Assembly (NCBI GenBank): GCA_019057475.1
Contig: DXJO01000004.1
Location: forward strand, 74,953-138,952
DNA: 64,000 nt
DNA from: Candidatus Thorarchaeota archaeon
GTDB taxonomy: Archaea > Asgardarchaeota > Thorarchaeia > Thorarchaeales > Thorarchaeaceae
Direction: 5' to 3'
Positions 1 to 11,844 of this stretch are shown here, piece after piece; position 1 is the stretch's first letter; each line of letters opens with the position of its first letter. The notes beneath the pieces were generated by a model. The model ran no database searches and had not been told where the DNA came from. It saw only the letters and a list, made by a program, of their open reading frames with translations. Position numbers and translations under genes: made by a program.

Positions 1-199
1 CCGGCCAATGGTGAGAATATCGCAATTCCAAGAGTGAATGAAGCGAAGATCATCCCCACCTGGATTGCATTGGCTCCATTGTGACCGCCATGATTGGAAG
101 AATGAATGCCACATAGAAAAAGCCCAAACTGCAGAAAAGCGATGAATTGTAGATTGACTTGGGGCTCGCCCAATCAGTCTTCCTTTGCGAATCTTCTAT
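1..199 (-). pseudogene. MFS transporter 5' end (runs off window), frameshifted; ATA at expected start position
   Basis: Minus strand after GGAGGG RBS: ATA(199) EDSQRKTDWASPKSIYNSSLFCSLGFFYVAFILPIMAVTM, then after a 1-nt shift near 76 (G)ANAIQVGMIFASFTLGIAIFSPLAG, matching MFS TM1-TM2. Not in ORF track. Confidence 0.7.
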
Positions 200-246
200 G
201 TTATCCCTCCCCCTCAGTTTGCTTTCCTGTCTGGGTGTTCTATCCG

Positions 247-1230
247 CTAGAGATAACAGGCTACGAATCTACCGGGCTTGACTTCAACCAGTTCCGGCTC
301 CTCGGCTTTGCACTGAGGACCGAATTCCTGACAGCGAGGCTTGAAGCGGCATCCCGGAGGAAGGTCAATGGGAGTTGGGGTTTCTCCAGGCAGCATTATC
401 CTATGCCTCTTATGTGTGGGGTCTGGTATCGGGATGTTTGAAACCAACGCCTTTGTGTAAGGATGAAGCGGATCCATGATGACCTCCTCCATTGGGCCCG
501 TTTCCACAAGGCGTCCAAGATACATTATGACGATGTAATCGGCGATGTATCGTGCTTGAGCCAAATCGTGAGTGATGAAGATATAGGTGAGGCCATGTTC
601 CTCCTGCAGGTCTTCCATTAGGTTCATGATCTCGGTTCGAATGCTTGCATCAAGCATGGACACTGGTTCATCAGCGATTATGAGCTTCGGCTCCAAGATG
701 AGTGAACGTGCGATTGCCACTCTCTGAAGCTGACCTCCGCTGAGCTCATGTGTGTAGCGCCTTGCAAAATCCTTTGCCGGCATGAGCCTTACATTCTCGA
801 GAGCAGCAAGAACGCGACGGCGCAGTTCGGCTTCATTTTCTTCGATTTTGTGAATGGTGAGCCCCTCACCGACAAGTGTTTCAACGGTAAGCCGGGGGTC
901 TAGGACCTCGAAGGGGTTCTGGAAGATGATCTGCATTTTCAGTCTCAACAGGCGGAGTTCCTCTCGCGTCAAATCGGATATGTTGACTCCTTCGAAGTAT
1001 GCACTTCCTGACGTGGGTTCAATAAGACGAAGGATAGTCCTAGCTAGTGTTGTTTTACCGCAGCCAGACTCTCCTGCAATGGCGATTGAGCCGCCTCTCG
1101 GGACATCAAAGCTCACATCGTCTACAGCCTTTACGTATTTCTTTTCCTGCATGAAAGAAAGGAGTCCTGAACGCACAGGAAACCATTTCTTTAGGTTCCG
1201 AACTTCAAGGATGGGCTCTACTGATGTCAT
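247..1230 (-). CDS. oppF: Oligopeptide/dipeptide ABC transporter ATPase (OppF/DppF)
   Basis: GESGCGKT Walker A, LSGGQLQR signature, IIADEP Walker B, C-terminal HPYT and GCRFKPRC Cys cluster. Confidence 0.95.
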   Translation of the reverse strand: MTSVEPILEVRNLKKWFPVRSGLLSFMQEKKYVKAVDDVSFDVPRGGSIAIAGESGCGKTTLARTILRLIEPTSGSAYFEGVNISDLTREELRLLRLKMQIIFQNPFEVLDPRLTVETLVGEGLTIHKIEENEAELRRRVLAALENVRLMPAKDFARRYTHELSGGQLQRVAIARSLILEPKLIIADEPVSMLDASIRTEIMNLMEDLQEEHGLTYIFITHDLAQARYIADYIVIMYLGRLVETGPMEEVIMDPLHPYTKALVSNIPIPDPTHKRHRIMLPGETPTPIDLPPGCRFKPRCQEFGPQCKAEEPELVEVKPGRFVACYL

Positions 1231-2204
1231 TCAATCACCTCGAAAGACAGTTCTCCAGCGAAGTGACACTTTGCGTAATGTCCCTGCTTGATTTCTCTAT
1301 ACATAGGTTCTTTCTCTTTGCAGATATCCTGAGCGTAGGGACACCTTGGATGGAACCTGCAGCCAGCGGGAGGATTCAGTAGGTTTGGAGGAGTACCTGG
1401 AATGAACTGCAGGCGCTTCTTTTCCCCGATTACACTCGGGAATGCACCAATCAACTTGGATGTGTACGGATGCAGATTGTGCTTGAACACTGCCTTCGCA
1501 CTGCCCACTTCAACTAGGTTGCCTGCGTACATTATGCCTACGTTGTGACAGTTCTCTGCAACAACTGACAGGTCGTGAGTGATGAACAGGACTGCAAGCT
1601 CGTACTTTTCCTGCAGCTTCCTGAGCAAGTCCAGTATCTTGTTCTGGACTATCACGTCAAGGGCTGTCACCGGCTCGTCAGCAATGACGAGCATTGGATC
1701 ACACGCAAGAGACTGGGCAATGATGGCACGTTGGAGCATTCCGCCACTGAACTCATGAGGGTAGTCTCTTTGCCTCTTCGGTTCTAGACCCACCTCATCG
1801 AAAAGATCGGAAACAGTTGCTCTTGCCTCTTCCTTGCTGACACCTTCCTTCTCACGAATCACCTCAACAATCTGGGCGCCTATGCGAAGCACAGGATTGA
1901 ACGCATTCATGGCGTACTGGAAAATTATGGATGCTTTTCTCCATCTTAAATACCTTATCTCCTCTTCACTGAGAGCGGTAATTTCCTCATCTCCAAGCCT
2001 TATCGTGCCCTGTACTATCCGACCGTTCTCAGGGAGCAGACGCATGATGCTGTATGCAGTAGTTGTCTTGCCGCAGCCTGACTCACCAGCGAGCCCAAGA
2101 GTTTCCTTCGCCTCTATCTTGAAGGACACACCATCTACGGCCTTGACTGACTCCTTGCCGAGGTAGTAGTAGGTCTTGAGATTCTCAACTTCAAGAACTG
2201 CCAT
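1227..2204 (-). CDS. oppD: Oligopeptide/dipeptide ABC transporter ATPase (OppD/DppD)
   Basis: GESGCGKT, FSGGMLQR, IADEP, GCRFHPRC. Start refined to ATG 2204 (MAVLEV) just after the oppC stop; ORF track gives 2240. Confidence 0.95.
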   Translation of the reverse strand: MAVLEVENLKTYYYLGKESVKAVDGVSFKIEAKETLGLAGESGCGKTTTAYSIMRLLPENGRIVQGTIRLGDEEITALSEEEIRYLRWRKASIIFQYAMNAFNPVLRIGAQIVEVIREKEGVSKEEARATVSDLFDEVGLEPKRQRDYPHEFSGGMLQRAIIAQSLACDPMLVIADEPVTALDVIVQNKILDLLRKLQEKYELAVLFITHDLSVVAENCHNVGIMYAGNLVEVGSAKAVFKHNLHPYTSKLIGAFPSVIGEKKRLQFIPGTPPNLLNPPAGCRFHPRCPYAQDICKEKEPMYREIKQGHYAKCHFAGELSFEVIE

Positions 2205-2205
2205 T

Positions 2206-3753
2206 TCAGCGTCGCCTCCCTCGTAAGCGTGGATTGACAACTTTGTCCGCTGCGTGACTCACGAACACGAAACCTAACGAGGTCAGTAGGATCAGCAATC
2301 CCGGTGGAAGAATCCACCACCATGCCATATTGAGAAGTGCCGCGTTCTTGTTTGCCCAATGAAGCATGATACCCCAGCTGGGTGGCCCGTGAATATCCAC
2401 GAAACCAAGGAACGCGATACCTGCCTCACCAAGAATAGCACTAACAACACCAAGAATCATGTTTGCCAAGATAAGTGGCAAAGTGTTTGGAAGAATGTGT
2501 TTGATGAGGATGTATCTATCCGAAGCACCTAATGCATGGGCCGCCTCTGTAAGAGGTCTCTCCCTGAGAGATAGCGCCTCACTTCGTACCATTCTCGCTG
2601 TTCCTGTCCAACCAAGAATTGCAATGACAAAAATGATGTTGTGAAGACCCTGTCCAAACATAATCAGAAATACTAACATCAGTGGGAGTGTTGGAAGTGA
2701 AAGGAATACATCAGTTATTCGCATTAGAATAGTATCAACAGATCCGCCATAATAGCCAGATATCAAACCCACTGTAGTACCTAGACCCACGGCGACAATA
2801 CTAGCTGTGAATCCAACTATAAGTGAAATTTGAGTTCCATAAACTAGGCGACTCAAGATATCCTGACCGATGTGATTAGTTCCCAGCGGAAATTCTGCTG
2901 AAGGTGGTAGAAGCAGATTCTCTCCAATTCCAGCTGTTAATTCGCCCCAGTTTCGTATCAACCCTGCCCATTCAAGCACTGGTGCAATTAATGCTAGACC
3001 AACGATTGCGCCAATAATGCCCAGACCGACAAGCCCCATCCGTTCATGAACGAACTCGCTCCAGAATGATTCAATGCTCCTGCGATAATTCCAAATCGAT
3101 TCGATTATTTTGGGAAGGATCATGTATGCTGGAATTAGGATGAATGTTGCGATAAGTGAGATTCCACCCAGTGTATTGTTTAGTGGCACCGAAAGCACTG
3201 CTGGCAAAATAGTAGTTCCAGTTGCTGCTTCGGAGAGGAATCCTTCTAACACAATCCAGATTCCTACACTGCCAACTGCGATTCCACGATAAAGATCAAT
3301 CTGTCGATTCGACCAATGGGCGAGTAGTTTTGGATTCCATAGAAAGAGCACGAATGCGAAAATGAATCCTATTCCTATACCAAATGCAAAGAAGAAGAGT
3401 ATTGTAAGTCCAACTAGTAATAATGGTTGTAGAATTTTTACCAGACGATAATTATAGAACTGCTTGTAATAAAGTGCGAGGAACATTGTTCCTCCGAACA
3501 ATGCCCAACCGCTGATTCGATATGATGTTGTTATGAACAAACTGTAATCTTCAGACAACCCTGTTACTTCGAAGGACAACCATCCAACTAAGATGTTTGT
3601 CACTGAATCTACAATGAATATGACTAAGAGAGTAAGTAAGATGAACGATCCTAGTGAAGCCAATTTTACATGCCAGGGTTTCTTCTTACTTGCTGTTTCG
3701 AATATTTCATTGTCTGAATCCGTTGAGATATCTTGGTGTGTCATTTTCTGCAT
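2206..3753 (-). CDS. oppC: Oligopeptide ABC permease OppC with long N-terminal multi-TM extension
   Basis: PLGTNHIGQDILSRL, EAAHALGASD (EAA loop), PPSWG; ~230 extra hydrophobic N-terminal residues. Confidence 0.92.
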   Translation of the reverse strand: MQKMTHQDISTDSDNEIFETASKKKPWHVKLASLGSFILLTLLVIFIVDSVTNILVGWLSFEVTGLSEDYSLFITTSYRISGWALFGGTMFLALYYKQFYNYRLVKILQPLLLVGLTILFFFAFGIGIGFIFAFVLFLWNPKLLAHWSNRQIDLYRGIAVGSVGIWIVLEGFLSEAATGTTILPAVLSVPLNNTLGGISLIATFILIPAYMILPKIIESIWNYRRSIESFWSEFVHERMGLVGLGIIGAIVGLALIAPVLEWAGLIRNWGELTAGIGENLLLPPSAEFPLGTNHIGQDILSRLVYGTQISLIVGFTASIVAVGLGTTVGLISGYYGGSVDTILMRITDVFLSLPTLPLMLVFLIMFGQGLHNIIFVIAILGWTGTARMVRSEALSLRERPLTEAAHALGASDRYILIKHILPNTLPLILANMILGVVSAILGEAGIAFLGFVDIHGPPSWGIMLHWANKNAALLNMAWWWILPPGLLILLTSLGFVFVSHAADKVVNPRLRGRRR

Positions 3754-3759
3754 TCCTCC

Positions 3760-4779
3760 TTAATATCTAATTCTTGGATCCAGGTACAAGTACAACACAT
3801 CCGCTAGAAAATTCGCAAAAACTGTGATACTTGCTAAGAATAGAAATATCCCCTGTAAAACCGGATAATCTACTGATAATACAGAATGATACGTCAACAA
3901 TCCTAATCCTGACCAACTAAAAACGAATTCAGTAATCATAGCGCCACTGATAAGGTACGGTAGGTTGACTGCAACAACGCTGACCATCGGTAACATTGCA
4001 TTTCTCATAGCATGTCCAAAGAGTATTGTGCGTTCTTTGAGCCCTTTTGCTCTAGCTGCAAGAATATAATCTTGTGTGAACACATCTAGTACCGAATCTC
4101 TCATTATCAGGTAGAAACCTCCAATGAACGATAATGTTAGAACTATCCATGGCCCTGTCATATGCCACAAGTAATCACGCCAATAATCAAGGAAATTCAC
4201 ATGCACATAGCCTCTTGTGATTGTTCCTGCAAGAGGAATAATTCCTAATTGAAATCCGAAAAACATCAGCATTAGTAGACCAATCCAAAATACGGGCATT
4301 GCGTATGCGACAAGAAAAGTTACAGTGGATCCAGTGTCAATTAAGGTGTCGCGTCGAGCTGCTGCAATAACACCGACTACTATTCCGATGATTATTGCTG
4401 CGGCCATTGAAGCTCCCATCAGAATGAATGTGTTTGCAAATCTGAAATCAAAAATCGTTTTCCAAACTGGCTCTCCGAAATGTGAAAAGGAATAGCCCAT
4501 GTCTCCTTGAAAGAGATTAACCAGATAGATGAAATATTGTTCAATGAGACTCTTGTCTAACCCAAATCGTTCAACGATTGCTTGTCTAAGTTCTGGAGGG
4601 ATGCCTTCACCTAGAAGTGCCTGACGAGGATCTCCTGGCATAACTCTGAAAATGATAAAATTCAGTGTTATGATCATAAACCACACTATGATTGTTTGTA
4701 CGAAACGCTGAGCAATATACCGCCGGGTTCCAACACTAGTTCTTGCTGACACAGCACCACTCTCATTCAATATATGCAA
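3760..4779 (-). CDS. oppB: Oligopeptide ABC permease OppB (start possibly GTG 4752)
   Basis: MPGDP, FGLDKSLIEQY, AARAKGL, EFVFSWSGLG, LDPRIRY. Confidence 0.95.
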   Translation of the reverse strand: MHILNESGAVSARTSVGTRRYIAQRFVQTIIVWFMIITLNFIIFRVMPGDPRQALLGEGIPPELRQAIVERFGLDKSLIEQYFIYLVNLFQGDMGYSFSHFGEPVWKTIFDFRFANTFILMGASMAAAIIIGIVVGVIAAARRDTLIDTGSTVTFLVAYAMPVFWIGLLMLMFFGFQLGIIPLAGTITRGYVHVNFLDYWRDYLWHMTGPWIVLTLSFIGGFYLIMRDSVLDVFTQDYILAARAKGLKERTILFGHAMRNAMLPMVSVVAVNLPYLISGAMITEFVFSWSGLGLLTYHSVLSVDYPVLQGIFLFLASITVFANFLADVLYLYLDPRIRY

Positions 4780-4816
4780 TTATGTACTACTTAAAAGACC
4801 GCGGAATTACGTGGGC

Positions 4817-4851
4817 AAAAAGAAAGGAGTAGGGACCTAAGCTAGGCCCCT
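4817..4851 (-). terminator. Hairpin plus U-tract downstream of oppA1
   Basis: Minus strand AGGGGCCTA-GCT-TAGGTCCCT (9 bp, one G.U) followed by ACTCCTTTCTTTTT. Confidence 0.55.
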
Positions 4852-4865
4852 TAAACCAGTTTGAA

Positions 4866-6596
4866 TTATTTCTTCTTCATGAAGAGGTAGGTCACAATTA
4901 CACCTACAATCAGCGCACCAGCACCAATTCCAATCACGAGAACCCAGTCAACGCCTGTTGGAGGTTCAGTAACTAAACCAGAGTCGTACATAAAGACCAT
5001 AGCTCGTGGGTTGAATGATGTAAATGGTCCACCGGGTGGTGTAGTGAAGTTGACCCACTCAGCTCTCATTGCGTGAGTGTCATCAGACAAGAAGAGTGGT
5101 ATGAATGGCTTGTGCTCAAGGCAGTCAAGTTGAACTTGCCTTGCTGCAGCAGCTATTGTCGCGGGTGTAGCGCCCACGAAGTCATCCAAATGTGTGTCTA
5201 CTGCAGTATCACTGAGACCATAACAGTTGTCACCCCAGTCAACAATGTTGTCTGAGTGCATTCTCCACCAGACATGGTCTGGTACAGCACTGTAACCGTG
5301 ACTCATCTCATAAGCGATGAATGCACGTGGTTCTGCATAAATGCCTTCATACATTGGACCATCATCCATAACTTTGACGTTACAGTCGATACCTATTTTG
5401 GCTAGTTGAAGCTTGATACCTGTTCCAGTTGCTACGCTGATGTCATCCCATGAGAGGACCCAGAGGTCAAAATCTAGATCATCAAAGAAGCCATCCTCGT
5501 CTCCGTCTGTGTATGTATCATTCAAAAGGTCGATTGCTGCATCAATGTCCTGAGTTGGGAATGCGCCATCATTATCAAAGTATGCTGGGAAGAACTCGGC
5601 TGGAATGCAACTGTTAGTTGGTGTTCCAAATCCAAGTCTGCCAATGTTGATAAGTTCTTGACGATCAATTCCTAGTGCAATTGCATCTCTAACATCAGGA
5701 TCATCGAATGGTGCAACTGTTGTATTAAATCCTAGAACATAATCCCATTGGGATACAACACCTGTAACTAGTTGTAGTTCGGGTGCATTTAGGATTGAGT
5801 TTACATAAGCACCAAAGACTTCGTAGCGTTCTGTGTCAGCTTCACCACTTCTCATTGCGAGAATACGAGCATCCTGACCGAGTACCACATCAATTCGAAG
5901 GCTTTCGATATTCGGTAGTTGACCCACATATGGATTATCAGGACCCCACCAGTCGTCGTTTCTTTCCATCTGAATAAATTCACTGGGGGTTCGTGAAACG
6001 AACTTGAATGGACCTGAACCAATGTGAGCAGTTACGTTTGTAGCATCATCCCACACAGCTGCATCGGCAGCAACACCTTCTCGAATGTGTTTTGGCAGAA
6101 GATGCATTGAACCTAAGTTATCAACAGCAAATGTAAATGGTTCATCAAATACAACTGTAACAACCTGACCGCTAACGGTAATTGTTGTTGTATGCTGTAG
6201 TAGTGACCAATAGTTTGCATCTGCCGGTGCGGCCTTGTGATGGTCAAAAGTGAATTTGACATCTGCAGGTGTTAACGCAGTACCATCATGCCAAGTAGCA
6301 CCCTCTCTTATGGTGAAGGTGACACTCATTCCATCTGCGGACACTGTCCACGCCTCGGCTAACCAAGGTATCATTTCTAGGTCGTCATCGTATGAGATAA
6401 GTGTATCATAAATCAGCATGTCGTACTAGGTTGAGCGTGCGCTACGGGCAAATATTGGGTTTTGTTCACCAATATCTGAAGGATATGCCATGACGAATTC
6501 CATGACATCATCCTGAGCCGCAACGGGTGCGCCCATCACTGGAAAGAACAAGAGAATAGCTAGAATGATACAGCTTGCTCTCTGAGTGTTTTTCAT
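4866..6596 (-). CDS. oppA: Oligopeptide ABC substrate-binding protein OppA (SBP family 5) with signal peptide and C-terminal TM anchor, interrupted by in-frame TAG at 6426-6428
   Basis: GGAGG RBS then ATG 6596 MKNTQRASCIILAILLFFPVMGAPVAA...RST*YDMLIYDT; LAEAWTVS..TFTIREGATWHDG and GSGPF motifs; C-terminal hydrophobic helix + KKK. ORF track shows only 4866-6419. Confidence 0.9.
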
Positions 6597-6726
6597 ACAA
6601 TCTTTCCTCCTATAACAACTAGAAGTAGAGTACTCTAGTGAACTTAATCATTTGCATCGTATGGTTTAAAGCTTTTGAAAATAGTGATATCGCATGAAGA
6701 AAAAGCTGAATGGAAAGATTCGCTAA

Positions 6727-7521
6727 TCAACAGAAATCATGTTTCAATTTCTTCTGATACAAATCATCCTTTTCACAGATACGTGATAGCGCGATACCGT
6801 TCTGAAGTGCCTTATCTAGAGAACCTTCACCTATGTTCTCTAGAAATAGGAACCTTTCCTTTCCTGATTCTATGTTTTGGAAAATCGCCATTATTGTTTG
6901 AATATATACGCGTTCCTCAATCTCAAAACTGTCAACTCGATATTCTAGTGGGCAATTTGTCACAAGTGATGCAGCTACTGAAAAACTGTGAATTGATTTT
7001 CGCTTCAGAGCTAGATCATTCTCTCTGTGCCGAGATTTTGGTGATCTTGGAATGAAAAGTGGAAATGCCGCACCTGATCCCAATTGAATCCCTCTAAGTT
7101 CCTCATCCATTCCAAGGAGTGTTTTCTTAGATTCTTGGATTTTGTTCACAAATGCATCAATGAAATTTCGAAGATTATCATCATCTGAGTCTAATGCATT
7201 AGTTGAGATAATCGATTTGTCAATGCTCTGAATTCGTTTTTCAGTATGCATCGGTCTCCACAATAGAAACCAATCGTCTGAAATAATGGCAAGAGGTGCA
7301 AGTGTTTCATCTACTAGTGAGCGAAATGTTTCCTTCTGGTTTGTCTTTATTCTTGATGCACCAAATCGCACGAACCTGAAAGGTCTCCAAATTGGTTGAG
7401 ATACTGTTACAGATTCCAATTCTTGTTTACTAAGGATTCCTTTACGTTTGGCCCTCTTTCGAAAGAAGGATTCAATTTCGCCATCATCGAATTCTTCTAT
7501 TTCAAAAACTTTCATCTTCAC
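6727..7521 (-). CDS. Hypothetical protein (264 aa)
   Basis: Long ORF with GAGGA RBS before GTG; same strand as opp operon; no family recognised. Confidence 0.75.
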   Translation of the reverse strand: MKMKVFEIEEFDDGEIESFFRKRAKRKGILSKQELESVTVSQPIWRPFRFVRFGASRIKTNQKETFRSLVDETLAPLAIISDDWFLLWRPMHTEKRIQSIDKSIISTNALDSDDDNLRNFIDAFVNKIQESKKTLLGMDEELRGIQLGSGAAFPLFIPRSPKSRHRENDLALKRKSIHSFSVAASLVTNCPLEYRVDSFEIEERVYIQTIMAIFQNIESGKERFLFLENIGEGSLDKALQNGIALSRICEKDDLYQKKLKHDFC

Positions 7522-7626
7522 TCCTCTAGAAACGTCGAATTAAGCACAAACTAGAACCAAATAAGAAGTTCGACTGATTCTGCATCAGAGGGAGGATAGT
7601 TCACAAGGAACTTCTTCATACAATTT

Positions 7627-7913
7627 ATGACTTCCATGATTGACAAACTTGAGAAGCACATAGAGGAGAATCTTGAGAATGCTTTGAACGATTTGAAAGA
7701 GTTCGTTCGTATTCCTTCTATTGCAACTAAGAATCAAGGCATAGTGGAGGCTGCTGAATTTCTAAAAAGCCATCTTAGTAGTGCGGGAGTGAAAGTGAAA
7801 ATTCACAATACATCAGGTTCACCTGTTGTTACAGGCCATCTTGATGTTGGCGCAAAACGAGCTCCTGAGTTTATTTAAAAGAACGCCGATTTTCTGAAGG
7901 CTGATGGAGGGAT
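7627..7913 (+). pseudogene. Truncated, internally deleted M20 peptidase paralog
   Basis: MTSMIDKLEKHIEENL...SGSPVVTGHLDVGAKR aligns with N-terminus of 8501-9841, then jumps to PEFI*KNADFLKADGGI (intact copy PEFTKKNTEFLKADGGI, ~80 aa later); 7894-7913 identical to 8999-9018. Confidence 0.85.
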
Positions 7914-8025
7914 ATCGGCGGACTATGTCTGTGCTTTCATGAATAGAGGCGTTGCACACGACCGTCCTGCGAAGGAACAAAAGCGCGGACCAGGATGGGC
8001 ATCTCTAAGAGAAAAAGGGTGGACT

Positions 8026-8264
8026 GTACTGCCTGTTTTGCACATAGACGAAGCCTCGCTTGTCTTTGGCGGACGGAAGGAGGATGCTGATCCGCGACTT
8101 GGACTGAAATACTTTGGGCCATTCCACACGGACGAGAGAAACCAACGCCACAGATGCGTATCGGAATCATAGCAATGGGCAGTACACATGCCTTAGCAAG
8201 AGCGTTTCTGGAGATGCTAGGGATTGAGCAGAAGTCACATAGTAGTACGACGAATTCTCTTTGA
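8026..8264 (+). pseudogene. Relic of prokaryotic Argonaute (short pAgo-like N-terminal/MID start), frameshifted and truncated
   Basis: VLHIDEASLVFGGRKEDADPRLGLKYFGPF, then after a frameshift near 8135 QMRIGIIAMGSTHALARAFLEML. Matches the pAgo pattern I.EP.L.FG..DPR.GL..FGP..I+.G.IG as recalled from short pAgos. Confidence 0.7.
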
Positions 8265-8500
8265 TGAATTCTATTCGACGTATCTCTTTGATAGAGTCCG
8301 GGTTAGAGTTTCTTTGTTGAAGATGGGTCCGTCGAGAGCAATCATCATGTTGGCGTCCTTATGGTGGGAAGATGTCCTTAATGTATATGGTTCGGGTATT
8401 CGAAGATAAGCAGTTCGTTTCGACGTTCCGCACATATCGGTCCTCCTAGATGGGAGAGTATTTGACTAAGCAAGGTTCCCCAAGACACTGGTCGATGCAT

Positions 8501-9841
8501 ATGTACGATGCTGTGATTGAGTTCATTGATGATAACATAGAGCGTTCGATAGATTCTCTCAAGGAGCTCTGTCGTATCCCAACTGTGGCCGCGAAAGGAC
8601 AGGGTCTTGAAGAGACCGCGGAACTGGTGAGCAAGATGCTTGAGGACGCAGGTCTTGAGACCCAGCTTCATAAAACATCCGGAGCACCGGTTGTCACAGC
8701 GATTTTCGACGTTGGGGCAAAGAGGACACTCATGTTCTATGACCATTATGACGTCCAGCCAGCGGAGCCACTCGACCTCTGGGATTCAGAGCCCTTTGAG
8801 CCCGAAGCCCGGAATGGCAGGCTGTACGGTCGGGGGGTGGCTGACAATAAAGGCGACACGGTTTCAAGAATCTGGACAATCAAAGCATTCACTGAAACCA
8901 AAACCGACCTGCCGGTCAACATCAAGTTCGTTGTGGAAGGTGAAGAGGAGATTGGAAGCTTGCACCTTCCTGAGTTCACCAAGAAGAATACTGAATTCCT
9001 GAAGGCTGATGGAGGGATTTGGGAGTTCGGCGGCGCTGGAATCGATGGCGTGCAAGAAGCCTGGCTCGGTCTGAAAGGGGTCTTTTTCGTAGAGCTTGAG
9101 GTCGAACGCTTAAACAAGGATGTTCACTCAAGCACGGCCTGCATCCTCCCGTCGGCGGCATATCGTCTAGTTTGGGCGCTGGCTTCACTGAAGGACGAGA
9201 ATGATAAGATACTCATCGAAGGCTTCTATGATGACGCCAAGCCGCTATCAGCAGCTGAGCTTGATGCGATCAAGAAGATAGACATGCACGAGCAGATGTG
9301 GAAGACTGAATACGGACTAGACGAGTATCTAATGAGCCTGTCTGGTGATGCACTGAAGGAGGCCTACTATAATGCTCCAACCTGCAACATCTGTGGTTTG
9401 ACGAGTGGTTATCAAGGCAAAGGCTCCATGACAGTTCTTCCTGCAAAAGCATCGGTCAAGATTGATTTCAGGCTCGTGGAAGACATGGGTCCGAATGACA
9501 TTCATCGGAAGCTCAGGTTGCACCTAGATAGACGCGGGTTCACAGACGTGAAGATTTCCTACTCCGAGGGATATCCGGCAGCCAAAACACCGGTTGACCA
9601 TCCTTTTGTTGAGATTGTCGCAAAGGCTAATCAAAAGGTGTTCGGAGACTTGAGGATACAAGTAACGAGCCCTGGCTCTGGGCCTCTCTATCTTTTCAAG
9701 GAACATGTTCCAATGGTGTCTATTGGATGTGGAGATTCCAAGAGTAGCGTGCACTCTCCAAACGAGAGCATAATCTTGGAGAACTATAGGAAATCCATGC
9801 ATCGTCTTGTCTATGTCATTGACGAGATGGGTCGCTGGTGA
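8501..9841 (+). CDS. M20/M25/M40 metallopeptidase (DapE/ArgE/dipeptidase-like)
   Basis: YDHYDVQP, GRGVADNKG, EGEEEIGS, VHSPNE metal-binding motifs; start refined to ATG 8501 by alignment with the paralog remnant (track 8450). Confidence 0.95.
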   Translation: MYDAVIEFIDDNIERSIDSLKELCRIPTVAAKGQGLEETAELVSKMLEDAGLETQLHKTSGAPVVTAIFDVGAKRTLMFYDHYDVQPAEPLDLWDSEPFEPEARNGRLYGRGVADNKGDTVSRIWTIKAFTETKTDLPVNIKFVVEGEEEIGSLHLPEFTKKNTEFLKADGGIWEFGGAGIDGVQEAWLGLKGVFFVELEVERLNKDVHSSTACILPSAAYRLVWALASLKDENDKILIEGFYDDAKPLSAAELDAIKKIDMHEQMWKTEYGLDEYLMSLSGDALKEAYYNAPTCNICGLTSGYQGKGSMTVLPAKASVKIDFRLVEDMGPNDIHRKLRLHLDRRGFTDVKISYSEGYPAAKTPVDHPFVEIVAKANQKVFGDLRIQVTSPGSGPLYLFKEHVPMVSIGCGDSKSSVHSPNESIILENYRKSMHRLVYVIDEMGRW

Positions 9842-9853
9842 TTGCTCGACGAT

Positions 9854-10837
9854 TTAGAAAAGGTGACATGCAACAGAATGGCCCGTTTCCACCTCTCGGA
9901 ATTCAGGGTCCTCCGTCTTGCATTTCTCCATGCACTTCGGGCAGCGCGGATGAAATCGACAGCCTGAGGGTGGATCTATGGGACTGGGTATCTCTCCCGG
10001 TGGAATTGCTTCTGACCTCCGAGCCTTCGGATCAGGCACTGGAATCGCACCTATCAGTCCCACAGTATAAGGATGAAGAGGGTTCTCGTAGACTTGGTTC
10101 CTGTCTCCGAGCTCAATGACTCGGCCAAGATACATTATCGCTATGCGATCACAGACATGTCTTGCTGTCGCTAGATCGTGCGATATGAAGAGGTACGTCA
10201 GATCAAGGTCCTTCTTCAGGTCAAGCATGAGTTCAAGCAACTGAGCCTTGATGGACACGTCTACCATCGCGACTGGTTCGTCTGTGACCACGAATTCGGG
10301 GTCCATTATGATAGCTCTTCCGAAGACAACCCTCTGCTTCTGTCCACCACTGAGTTGATGTGGGAGCCTATCATAGAATGAACTAGCAGGAGACAATCCC
10401 ACCTTCTCAAGCACCTCTTCGGCTTTCTCCTTCCTTTCTGCGGGGGTGCCAAGCTTTTGGAACTTCAATGCGTCCGCTATCGCTTTACCAACTGACAGGC
10501 GCGGATTCAACGAAGATGTAGGATCTTGAAACGTGAACTGAAGTCTACGCCTGAGAAGCCTGAGTTCCTTCCCTCTGATATCTGCGATATCCTCTCCATC
10601 ATAGATGATCTGACCCTCAGTGGGTTTGAGTAGACGCACGCATAATCTTCCCATTGTAGTCTTTCCCGAACCACTCTCGCCAGCAAGACCAAGGGTTTCG
10701 CCCTTTTCTATTTGGAGTGAAACATCGTCAATTGCTCTGACAAAAGTTGTTTCTCCTTTGAACAGTGAATCGATAAAGCCCCTCTGAACGGGGAAGTACA
10801 TCTTGACATTCTTTGCTTCTATGAGTGCCATCCTCAT
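9854..10837 (-). CDS. oppF: Oligopeptide ABC ATPase OppF (second system)
   Basis: GESGSGKT, LSGGQKQR, HPYT, GCRFHPRC; ATGA overlap with upstream oppD stop. Confidence 0.95.
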   Translation of the reverse strand: MRMALIEAKNVKMYFPVQRGFIDSLFKGETTFVRAIDDVSLQIEKGETLGLAGESGSGKTTMGRLCVRLLKPTEGQIIYDGEDIADIRGKELRLLRRRLQFTFQDPTSSLNPRLSVGKAIADALKFQKLGTPAERKEKAEEVLEKVGLSPASSFYDRLPHQLSGGQKQRVVFGRAIIMDPEFVVTDEPVAMVDVSIKAQLLELMLDLKKDLDLTYLFISHDLATARHVCDRIAIMYLGRVIELGDRNQVYENPLHPYTVGLIGAIPVPDPKARRSEAIPPGEIPSPIDPPSGCRFHPRCPKCMEKCKTEDPEFREVETGHSVACHLF

Positions 10838-11844
10838 TTCCCTCCATAAAGGTGGCATGCCACTAGTCCACCTGTTTCGCTCTCGATAAGGGGCGGAACC
10901 TGCGTCTTGCAGATATCCATTGCCATGGGACATCTGGGATTGAACATACACCCAGGGATGGGATCAACCAGATCAGGGGGAGCTCCTGGAATCCACACAA
11001 GCTTCTTGTCTGGCTTTGTGACATCCGGAACTGAGAGGAGCAGTGCCTGGGCATAGGGGTGCTGAGGAGCCTCAAATACGTTCTCTACAGATGCAAGCTC
11101 AACTAGTCGACCACAATACATGATTGCGATGTCATCTGCAGTTTGCGCCAATACGCCGAGATTGTGAGTGATGAGAATCATTGTCAGATTGAACTTCTTT
11201 TTCAGTTCCGCCATCTGTTCGAGGATTTGCGCCTCCACAATTACGTCAAGCGATGTTGTTGGCTCGTCTGATATCAATAGCCGCGGCCGCAAGACCAGAC
11301 CAAGGCCAATCATCACTCTTTGACGCATTCCTCCGCTGAACTGGTGAGGGTAGTCTGTCACACGCTCAGGCAAAATACCTAGGCCTTCGAGAACCTCCTT
11401 TCCTCGATCAAGAGCTTCTTCTTTTTCTATCTCTGGGTCATGGGCGCGTATCATCTGAACGAAATGGCTACCAATGGTCAGCATGGGATTCAACGATGTC
11501 ATGGGGTCCTGAAAGATATAGGCTATCTCCTTGCCGCGAAGAACCCTCATTTGCTCTTCATTCAGCTCCGTGATATCGACCTCTCCTTTCGGAATATCTC
11601 CCTCCTTACATGGAATATCCTCATCGATGTTGATGTAGATATTTCCATCCGCGATTTGCCCAGGATAAGGGACTAGTCGCATTATCGCCCTACCAAGAGT
11701 AGATTTACCGCACCCTGATTCCCCAGCCAGACCGAGCGTTCTGTTTTCCTCGAGACTTAGTCGAATCCGATCCACCGCACGAGCAACGCCCCTGCGTGTC
11801 TTGTACTCCACCGTCAAATCCTGAATCCTTAGTGCATTGGTCAT
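10834..11844 (-). CDS. oppD: Oligopeptide ABC ATPase OppD (second system)
   Basis: GESGCGKS, FSGGMRQR, ISDEPTTSLD, GCMFNPRC. Confidence 0.95.
   Translation of the reverse strand: MTNALRIQDLTVEYKTRRGVARAVDRIRLSLEENRTLGLAGESGCGKSTLGRAIMRLVPYPGQIADGNIYINIDEDIPCKEGDIPKGEVDITELNEEQMRVLRGKEIAYIFQDPMTSLNPMLTIGSHFVQMIRAHDPEIEKEEALDRGKEVLEGLGILPERVTDYPHQFSGGMRQRVMIGLGLVLRPRLLISDEPTTSLDVIVEAQILEQMAELKKKFNLTMILITHNLGVLAQTADDIAIMYCGRLVELASVENVFEAPQHPYAQALLLSVPDVTKPDKKLVWIPGAPPDLVDPIPGCMFNPRCPMAMDICKTQVPPLIESETGGLVACHLYGGK

Follow-up and report, generated by a model that had tools for sequence, protein, structure and literature searches.

Short prokaryotic Argonautes (pAgos) and their APAZ partners form complexes that pass through guide binding, DNA recognition, oligomerisation and effector release (PMC9097488, PMC12738770). 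The published fusions of an effector-APAZ protein with a short pAgo carry SIR2, TIR or DUF4365 only, and Schlafen is not listed among them. Prokaryotic Schlafen domains with the E-x4-D-x-K motif cleave tRNA (PMC13056530), and so does the long-B SLFN-pAgo RzAgo, in which two Schlafen domains must pair (bioRxiv 10.64898/2026.05.29.728809). The same preprint mentions, without assay, two-gene operons in which SLFN-APAZ proteins are the partners of short pAgos. A figure of that preprint also includes pAgos with Schlafen and without GHKL; since it does not state whether these are short or long, a fused short form may belong to that set. Two papers on Asgard Argonautes do not mention APAZ or Schlafen, and no description of a fused short form was found in the literature searched (paywalled texts and figure contents were out of reach).

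A pseudogene fragment at 7908-8247

The window (the whole stretch of 64,000 nucleotides analysed here) carries on the + strand at 7908-8247 an internal fragment of a SLFN-APAZ-short pAgo gene, a pseudogene relic recognised by its DNA identity to three intact copies: 92.4% to L011, 93.3% to L120 and 94.1% to L121. When the relic is aligned with the intact gene of L011, 315 of 341 bases match with a single gap. It corresponds to residues 434-546 of the 967-aa parent P0002 (from Logan and ENA assemblies of other metagenomes), or about 12% of the gene, and no other part of the parent gene was found in this 96%-complete genome. The initial annotation had placed the relic of a short pAgo at 8026-8264, with a slip near 8135. 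Both peptide pieces are present where it put them and match PADLOC models and P0002, but the homology begins at 7908 and ends at 8247. The slip proves to be the loss of a single base at 8136/8137 (+ strand, codon 509), seen as a gap against L011; it is private to this strain and absent from the relic in the sister strain L117. It separates the N-terminal part of the pAgo at 8026-8135 (+ strand, residues 473-509; PADLOC pAgo matches, alignment and codon table), in which the conserved EP of the first Ago motif has become EA, from residues 510-546 at 8138-8247 (+ strand), which form the first MID strand and helix. A profile search with the frame-corrected peptide of about 80 aa had been proposed as a check: the 81-aa peptide aligns with positions 1-70 of the short-pAgo models of PADLOC (E 5e-9 to 3e-7), and Pfam alone gives no match for either piece. 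Its best PDB match, weaker than the PADLOC match, is the NbaSPARDA Ago; solved SPARTA Agos are also weakly matched, and the best protein match is P0002 (81% identity, E 1e-29).

Upstream of the Ago start, 7909-8025 (+ strand) encodes residues 434-472, which comprise the final strand of APAZ and the linker to the Ago part. BLASTP homology to P0002 runs from 7908 in the frame of the Ago start, with 66 of 75 residues identical, and the strand at 433-444 of P0002 lies within the region (201-453) that aligns with SPARHA APAZ at Z 20.9. Position 7914-8025 had been read as possibly the tail of an APAZ partner. It is APAZ-derived, but since it runs in frame into the Ago start, it represents the tail of APAZ and the linker within one chain; APAZ as a separate gene was rejected. 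Since the relic covers residues 434-546 only and is frameshifted, it does not make a complete ORF. These 340 bp come from the interior of a single-chain Schlafen-APAZ-short Argonaute defence gene and are dead: non-functional, and decaying without selection.

The site has a different layout in each of two related strains. In L117, which is 92% identical in the hypothetical gene, window position 7596 is joined to about 8014-8020, and the Ago fragment 8014-8212 has its own stop at codon 478 and ends at 8212. In L116, 7581 is joined to 8306 and the fragment is lost. Changes private to the window or L117 comprise nine that alter an amino acid and one silent, against four altering and eight silent among the changes shared relative to L011 (p 0.011 versus private); with L121 as reference the contrast is weaker (shared, four silent and three altering). 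These layouts and the pattern of private changes indicate that the fragment was at the site before the strains split and has been unselected since.

The foreign block and the origin of the junction

To the left of the relic lies an imported block. It contains oppA (4866-6596, - strand; 70-72% DNA identity to the allele of the congener G004), a foreign allele of a conserved hypothetical gene (6727-7521, - strand; 33% aa identity to the G004 allele and 71% to that of L118) and the 5' portion of an M20 peptidase allele of foreign origin, now a pseudogene (7627-7862, + strand; 46% aa identity to the native M20 and 79% to an unbroken allele in L118). An in-frame deletion has removed about 80 codons, and beyond it lies an internal M20 piece of 51 bp (7863-7913, + strand) with a TAA at 7876-7878. 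The left block shares 80% identity with L118, where M20 runs unbroken to the contig end, and is diverged from G004, which makes the first M20 a foreign allele. In oppA a private TGG-to-TAG change at 6426-6428 (- strand) is a nonsense mutation and not recoding, because L116 and L118 keep the Trp codon TGG; the imported block is decaying. Its left border is poorly fixed and may lie inside oppC: G001 matches up to window position 178, and GC drops from about 50% to 40% near 2400. Two congeners, G001 and G006, lack the opp-hyp-M20 block (179-7913), and in them about 400 bp of different DNA precede M20.

At the left junction the M20 piece and the Ago fragment overlap by 6-8 shared bases (AGGGAT[AT]). 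The right junction (8248-8292), defined by comparison with G004 and the donor L011, is a short stuttered duplication of native sequence, with 18-bp and 10-bp near-copies of 8276-8292. Joins through few shared bases and stuttered duplications are typical of short-homology repair. DNA rightwards of 8271 is 88-91% identical to G004. It begins with a 5' stub, some 26 codons long (8271-8348, - strand), of the native hypothetical gene, which is a full ORF in G004 and normally faces away from M20, and continues with the intact native M20 peptidase (8450-9841, + strand; Pfam PF01546 and PF07687; 92-95% aa identity to congeners), whose start is probably at 8501. The initial annotation had pictured a cassette between the M20 copies. 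The two M20 genes are one foreign and one native allele rather than duplicates flanking a cassette, and a tandem duplication was rejected, the copies being 46% identical and the broken one matching another lineage. The idea of a defence hotspot at opp-M20-opp found no support either: six relatives (G004, G089, G087, G073, G010 and G103) have opp, the hypothetical gene and one M20 with no Ago fragment, and intact Ago copies lie elsewhere.

We propose that, in an ancestor shared by this strain and one or more sister strains, the native opp-hyp block would have given way to a foreign opp-hyp-M20 block, and that short-homology joins and later deletions would then have left the M20 pieces, the Ago piece and the native stub side by side. 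This order of events is our reconstruction of the layout seen at the junction, and the donor arrangement is unseen because no intact Ago copy adjoining an M20 gene was found. As a whole, our best explanation is a dead gene piece at a foreign-block junction, derived from a SPARHA/SPARDA-like parent (probability about 0.8).

A different history, to which we give somewhat less than even odds, is that a whole SLFN-APAZ-pAgo gene, alone or on an island, once separated the foreign M20 allele from the native one, and that successive deletions trimmed it. Stepwise erosion at the site in three strains would suit this, as would the foreign M20's own internal deletion and an Ago fragment oriented as M20. 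However, there is no other island gene or integrase in the window or in the genome near the site, no relative has Ago beside M20, the intact copies are near tRNA ends or on HerA-type islands, and both ends of the relic abut non-Ago DNA, as with a captured repair fragment. The mosaic junction in a metagenome-assembled genome could also raise the thought of an assembly chimera or contamination, but the independent assemblies Logan SRR1964815 and JGI 3300032107 are 100% identical to the window over 6252 bp, so the junction is not an assembly error, and the fragment recurs next to the same gene in a diverged strain whose lesions differ; this reading is already largely refuted and extremely improbable. 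Hardly more credible is a functional small protein or decoy from the 77-codon ORF at 7939-8172: although it has an ATG and is called in two databases, it forms a singleton cluster, has lost its start and gained an internal stop in L117, and shows a changed conserved motif residue and private changes that look neutral. Read as a dead piece at the junction of a foreign block, the locus records the patching-in and erosion of foreign DNA in Thorarchaeia chromosomes.

The parent protein and its relatives

P0002 is one polypeptide in one frame with Schlafen (AlbA_2), APAZ and short pAgo parts. Residues 29-176 match Pfam AlbA_2 above the cut-off, the PADLOC APAZ (Aga) models match at about 204-428, within about 30 residues of AlbA_2, and the PADLOC class I pAgo model matches 475-967 end to end (E 1e-142). 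Pfam and PADLOC gave no GHKL or PAZ match in P0002. Its Ago is MID-PIWI without PAZ, the top 50 Foldseek matches being short pAgos, and the fused parent proteins range from 940 to 1030 aa. For residues 13-190 the predicted fold resembles Schlafen-type folds at Z 8-11 (8.4 for SLFN11, 10.8 for 3lmm), and the AlbA_2 region aligns with rat Schlafen 5yd0 and with CbCash. The alignment shows the Schlafen motif E-x4-D-x-K (E29/D34/K36) without variation, together with an intact SAFAN-type box that is followed in the fused proteins by an acidic residue at 71; the motif is found in 22/22 split and 17/18 fused proteins, the remaining fused one starting inside the motif. The parent therefore has each of the features of a Schlafen nuclease, namely E-x4-(D/E)-x-K, the SAFAN box and the AlbA_2 fold.

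The initial annotation had assigned the relic to the SPARTA/SPARSA type. A short pAgo it is, but the nearest solved systems are SPARHA and SPARDA, and instead of the implied TIR- or SIR2-type effector the parent has a Schlafen RNase domain (AlbA_2). The predicted N-terminal half, residues 201-453, aligns with the SPARHA HNH-APAZ (9om4_A) at Z 20.9, with SPARDA at 20.2 and with SPARTA at 18.5, and the APAZ matches SPARHA APAZ with an HMM E of 2e-36. For the Ago half SPARHA and SPARDA rank first (1e-63 to 1e-57), then SPARTA, and SPARSA last (1e-23). This score ranking suggests that the parent is closest to SPARHA/SPARDA (clade S2B); the trees cover the sequences of the parent's clade only. The PIWI catalytic positions are replaced in 19/19 readable proteins (first site G[IV][SA], second HK), and by its residues the parent Ago is predicted to be catalytically dead. 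The MID positions K680, Q691 and K727 are invariant in the alignment. Intact copies have a dN/dS of 0.03 with saturated dS, which indicates strong purifying selection.

The expectation that relatives carry an intact system was borne out: the fused gene, so far uncharacterised, occurs in 6 of 85 genomes of the Thorarchaeia family, with one copy cut by a contig end, and was not found in the other Asgard families searched. There are 17 full-length or nearly full-length clusters, the named ones belonging to Thorarchaeota or Thermoplasmataceae. Profile scans of species genomes placed the same clade in Bathyarchaeia, Thermoplasmata, Methanoperedens and Methanophagales, and also in Archaeoglobus, Nitrososphaerota, Micrarchaeota and Nanoarchaeota; in the scan of genome contigs a single-protein query found nothing, but an alignment-based profile did. 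Most clade members are overlapping two-gene operons, SLFN-APAZ then pAgo, and only 3 of the best 150 matches (50%-identity representatives) span both halves. Clade support is 100/100, and the fusions of Thorarchaeia type around P0002 group together (100/99). Fused and split states changed 3-4 times on the midpoint-rooted tree; a single fusion origin is not supported, one change being seen in 0/200 bootstrap trees. Neither by protein nor by DNA pattern did the IMG/VR viral contigs yield a copy. Because the clade is pan-archaeal and patchy, it has little bearing on Asgard-to-eukaryote Argonaute evolution, for which the relic had been thought of interest.

At its start L011, an 18-kb contig with the P0002 gene at 8908-11811, carries a tRNA-like 3' end for which this genome has an identical site; the match is 30/30 to the tRNA-like end here and in many relatives, and neither ARAGORN nor Rfam made a call for it. 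The final 46 bases of L011 occur in six genomes of this genus and in only one other, and the contig encodes a HerA-type ATPase. From these features L011 is probably an integrated element whose host belongs to this same genus. In L120 a tRNA lies 280 bases downstream of the gene, and the Thermoplasmata-type P0023 has restriction-modification, SIR2-STAND and IS66 genes as neighbours.

Other loci deserve mention in their own right. This genome (G000) holds two pairs of a HerA-type ATPase gene and an 870-aa gene (C21:65245-70422 and C42:398456-405381), 25-46% related to those beside the intact Ago of L011 and probable integrative elements. A second relic of the same gene, the last 78 codons only, is present in another Thorarchaeia genome (L060:9411-9644, G092:C31). 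A further Thorarchaeia locus (L062:7547-11500, G035:C2) encodes, within a HerA-type island, a split short-pAgo system whose APAZ partner is of a different kind and looks like PD-(D/E)XK. In G018 the fused gene (L008/L014) is followed by small toxin-antitoxin genes (HicA, PIN, NYN and HepT-like). A 704-aa open frame in Thermoplasmata (L098:2278-4392) is a SLFN-APAZ with a long N-terminal extension, a SLFN-APAZ copy in Nitrosopumilus (L108:2974-6164) is broken multiple times, and the cultured archaeon Cuniculiplasma divulgatum has 354-366-aa members of the fused P0021 cluster, possibly a broken copy.

Proposed action and comparison with known systems

By analogy, the intact parent most likely acts in the manner of SPARHA/SPARDA. 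Its dead Ago-APAZ core would load a short RNA guide and bind complementary invading DNA; target-bound complexes would oligomerise, with target-driven assembly replacing an ATPase, and the oligomer would bring the N-terminal Schlafen domains together, leading to tRNA cleavage and cell arrest. Domain order, motifs and folds are read from the parent itself; guide type, oligomer and substrate are proposed. The activation step is borrowed from SPARHA/SPARDA since the oligomerising ATPase of the published SLFN-pAgo is absent in the parent. Judging from RzAgo, RorSlfn5 and Cash, tRNA is probably the substrate. It is unlikely that the Schlafen domain targets rRNA, mRNA or DNA, or merely binds nucleic acid: AlbA_2 domains have long been annotated as DNA-binding (bioRxiv 10.1101/366930), but the E-x4-D-x-K motif is kept in the split and fused proteins as counted above, and 3/3 prokaryotic Schlafen systems found in the literature cut tRNA. 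Taking tRNA cleavage as the preferred reading, we see about an even chance for the full proposal: an undescribed single-chain Schlafen-APAZ-short Argonaute of Thorarchaeia, from a pan-archaeal clade, that acts as a guide-programmed, ATPase-free tRNase, with Argonaute and Schlafen joined independently at least twice and repeated fusion or fission within the clade.

The relic itself is inert, and its value is as a pointer to an intact, testable one-gene system in an Asgard lineage; it has no bearing on how eukaryotic Argonautes arose. The parent couples two protein families that also serve animal immunity. If the proposal is true, an ATPase-free single-chain guide-activated RNase would be a simple model of short-Argonaute effector switching and a possible DNA-detection tool.

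SPARHA (HNH-APAZ) and SPARDA (DREN-APAZ), both of clade S2B, resemble the parent in joining a dead MID-PIWI Ago, APAZ and a nuclease effector, and they give the best sequence and fold matches for both parent halves. Their effector is HNH or DREN, whereas that of the parent is a Schlafen RNase domain; the parent is also one chain, its clade is almost entirely archaeal, and the window holds a dead fragment only. Across SPARTA, SPARSA, SPARDA and SPARHA, the TIR, SIR2, DREN or HNH effector has no counterpart in the parent, whose N-terminus is AlbA_2. Fused effector-APAZ-short pAgo systems share the single polypeptide but have a different effector. HrAgo1 and HrAgo2 are also Asgard Argonautes (PMC11217426); HrAgo1 is long, active and eukaryote-like (PMC11217426), in contrast to the parent clade, which is short, dead and spread over many archaeal phyla. 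The nearest relatives of the parent are the split SLFN-APAZ and short pAgo operons, which have the same effector-APAZ pairing; the split form is already in the 2026 preprint, and the single-chain form seems to be undescribed. RzAgo, the SLFN-pAgo of Runella zeae, resembles the parent in its single-chain form, its N-terminal Schlafen domain, its E-x4-(D/E)-x-K motif and its dead PIWI, and it serves as a model for the parent through its tRNA cleavage upon target DNA recognition. However, RzAgo is a long-B pAgo of 1071-1187 aa with PAZ and a GHKL ATPase, whereas the parent has APAZ, no PAZ and no ATPase in 940-1030 aa. The parent would be a joining of Schlafen and Argonaute independent of RzAgo.
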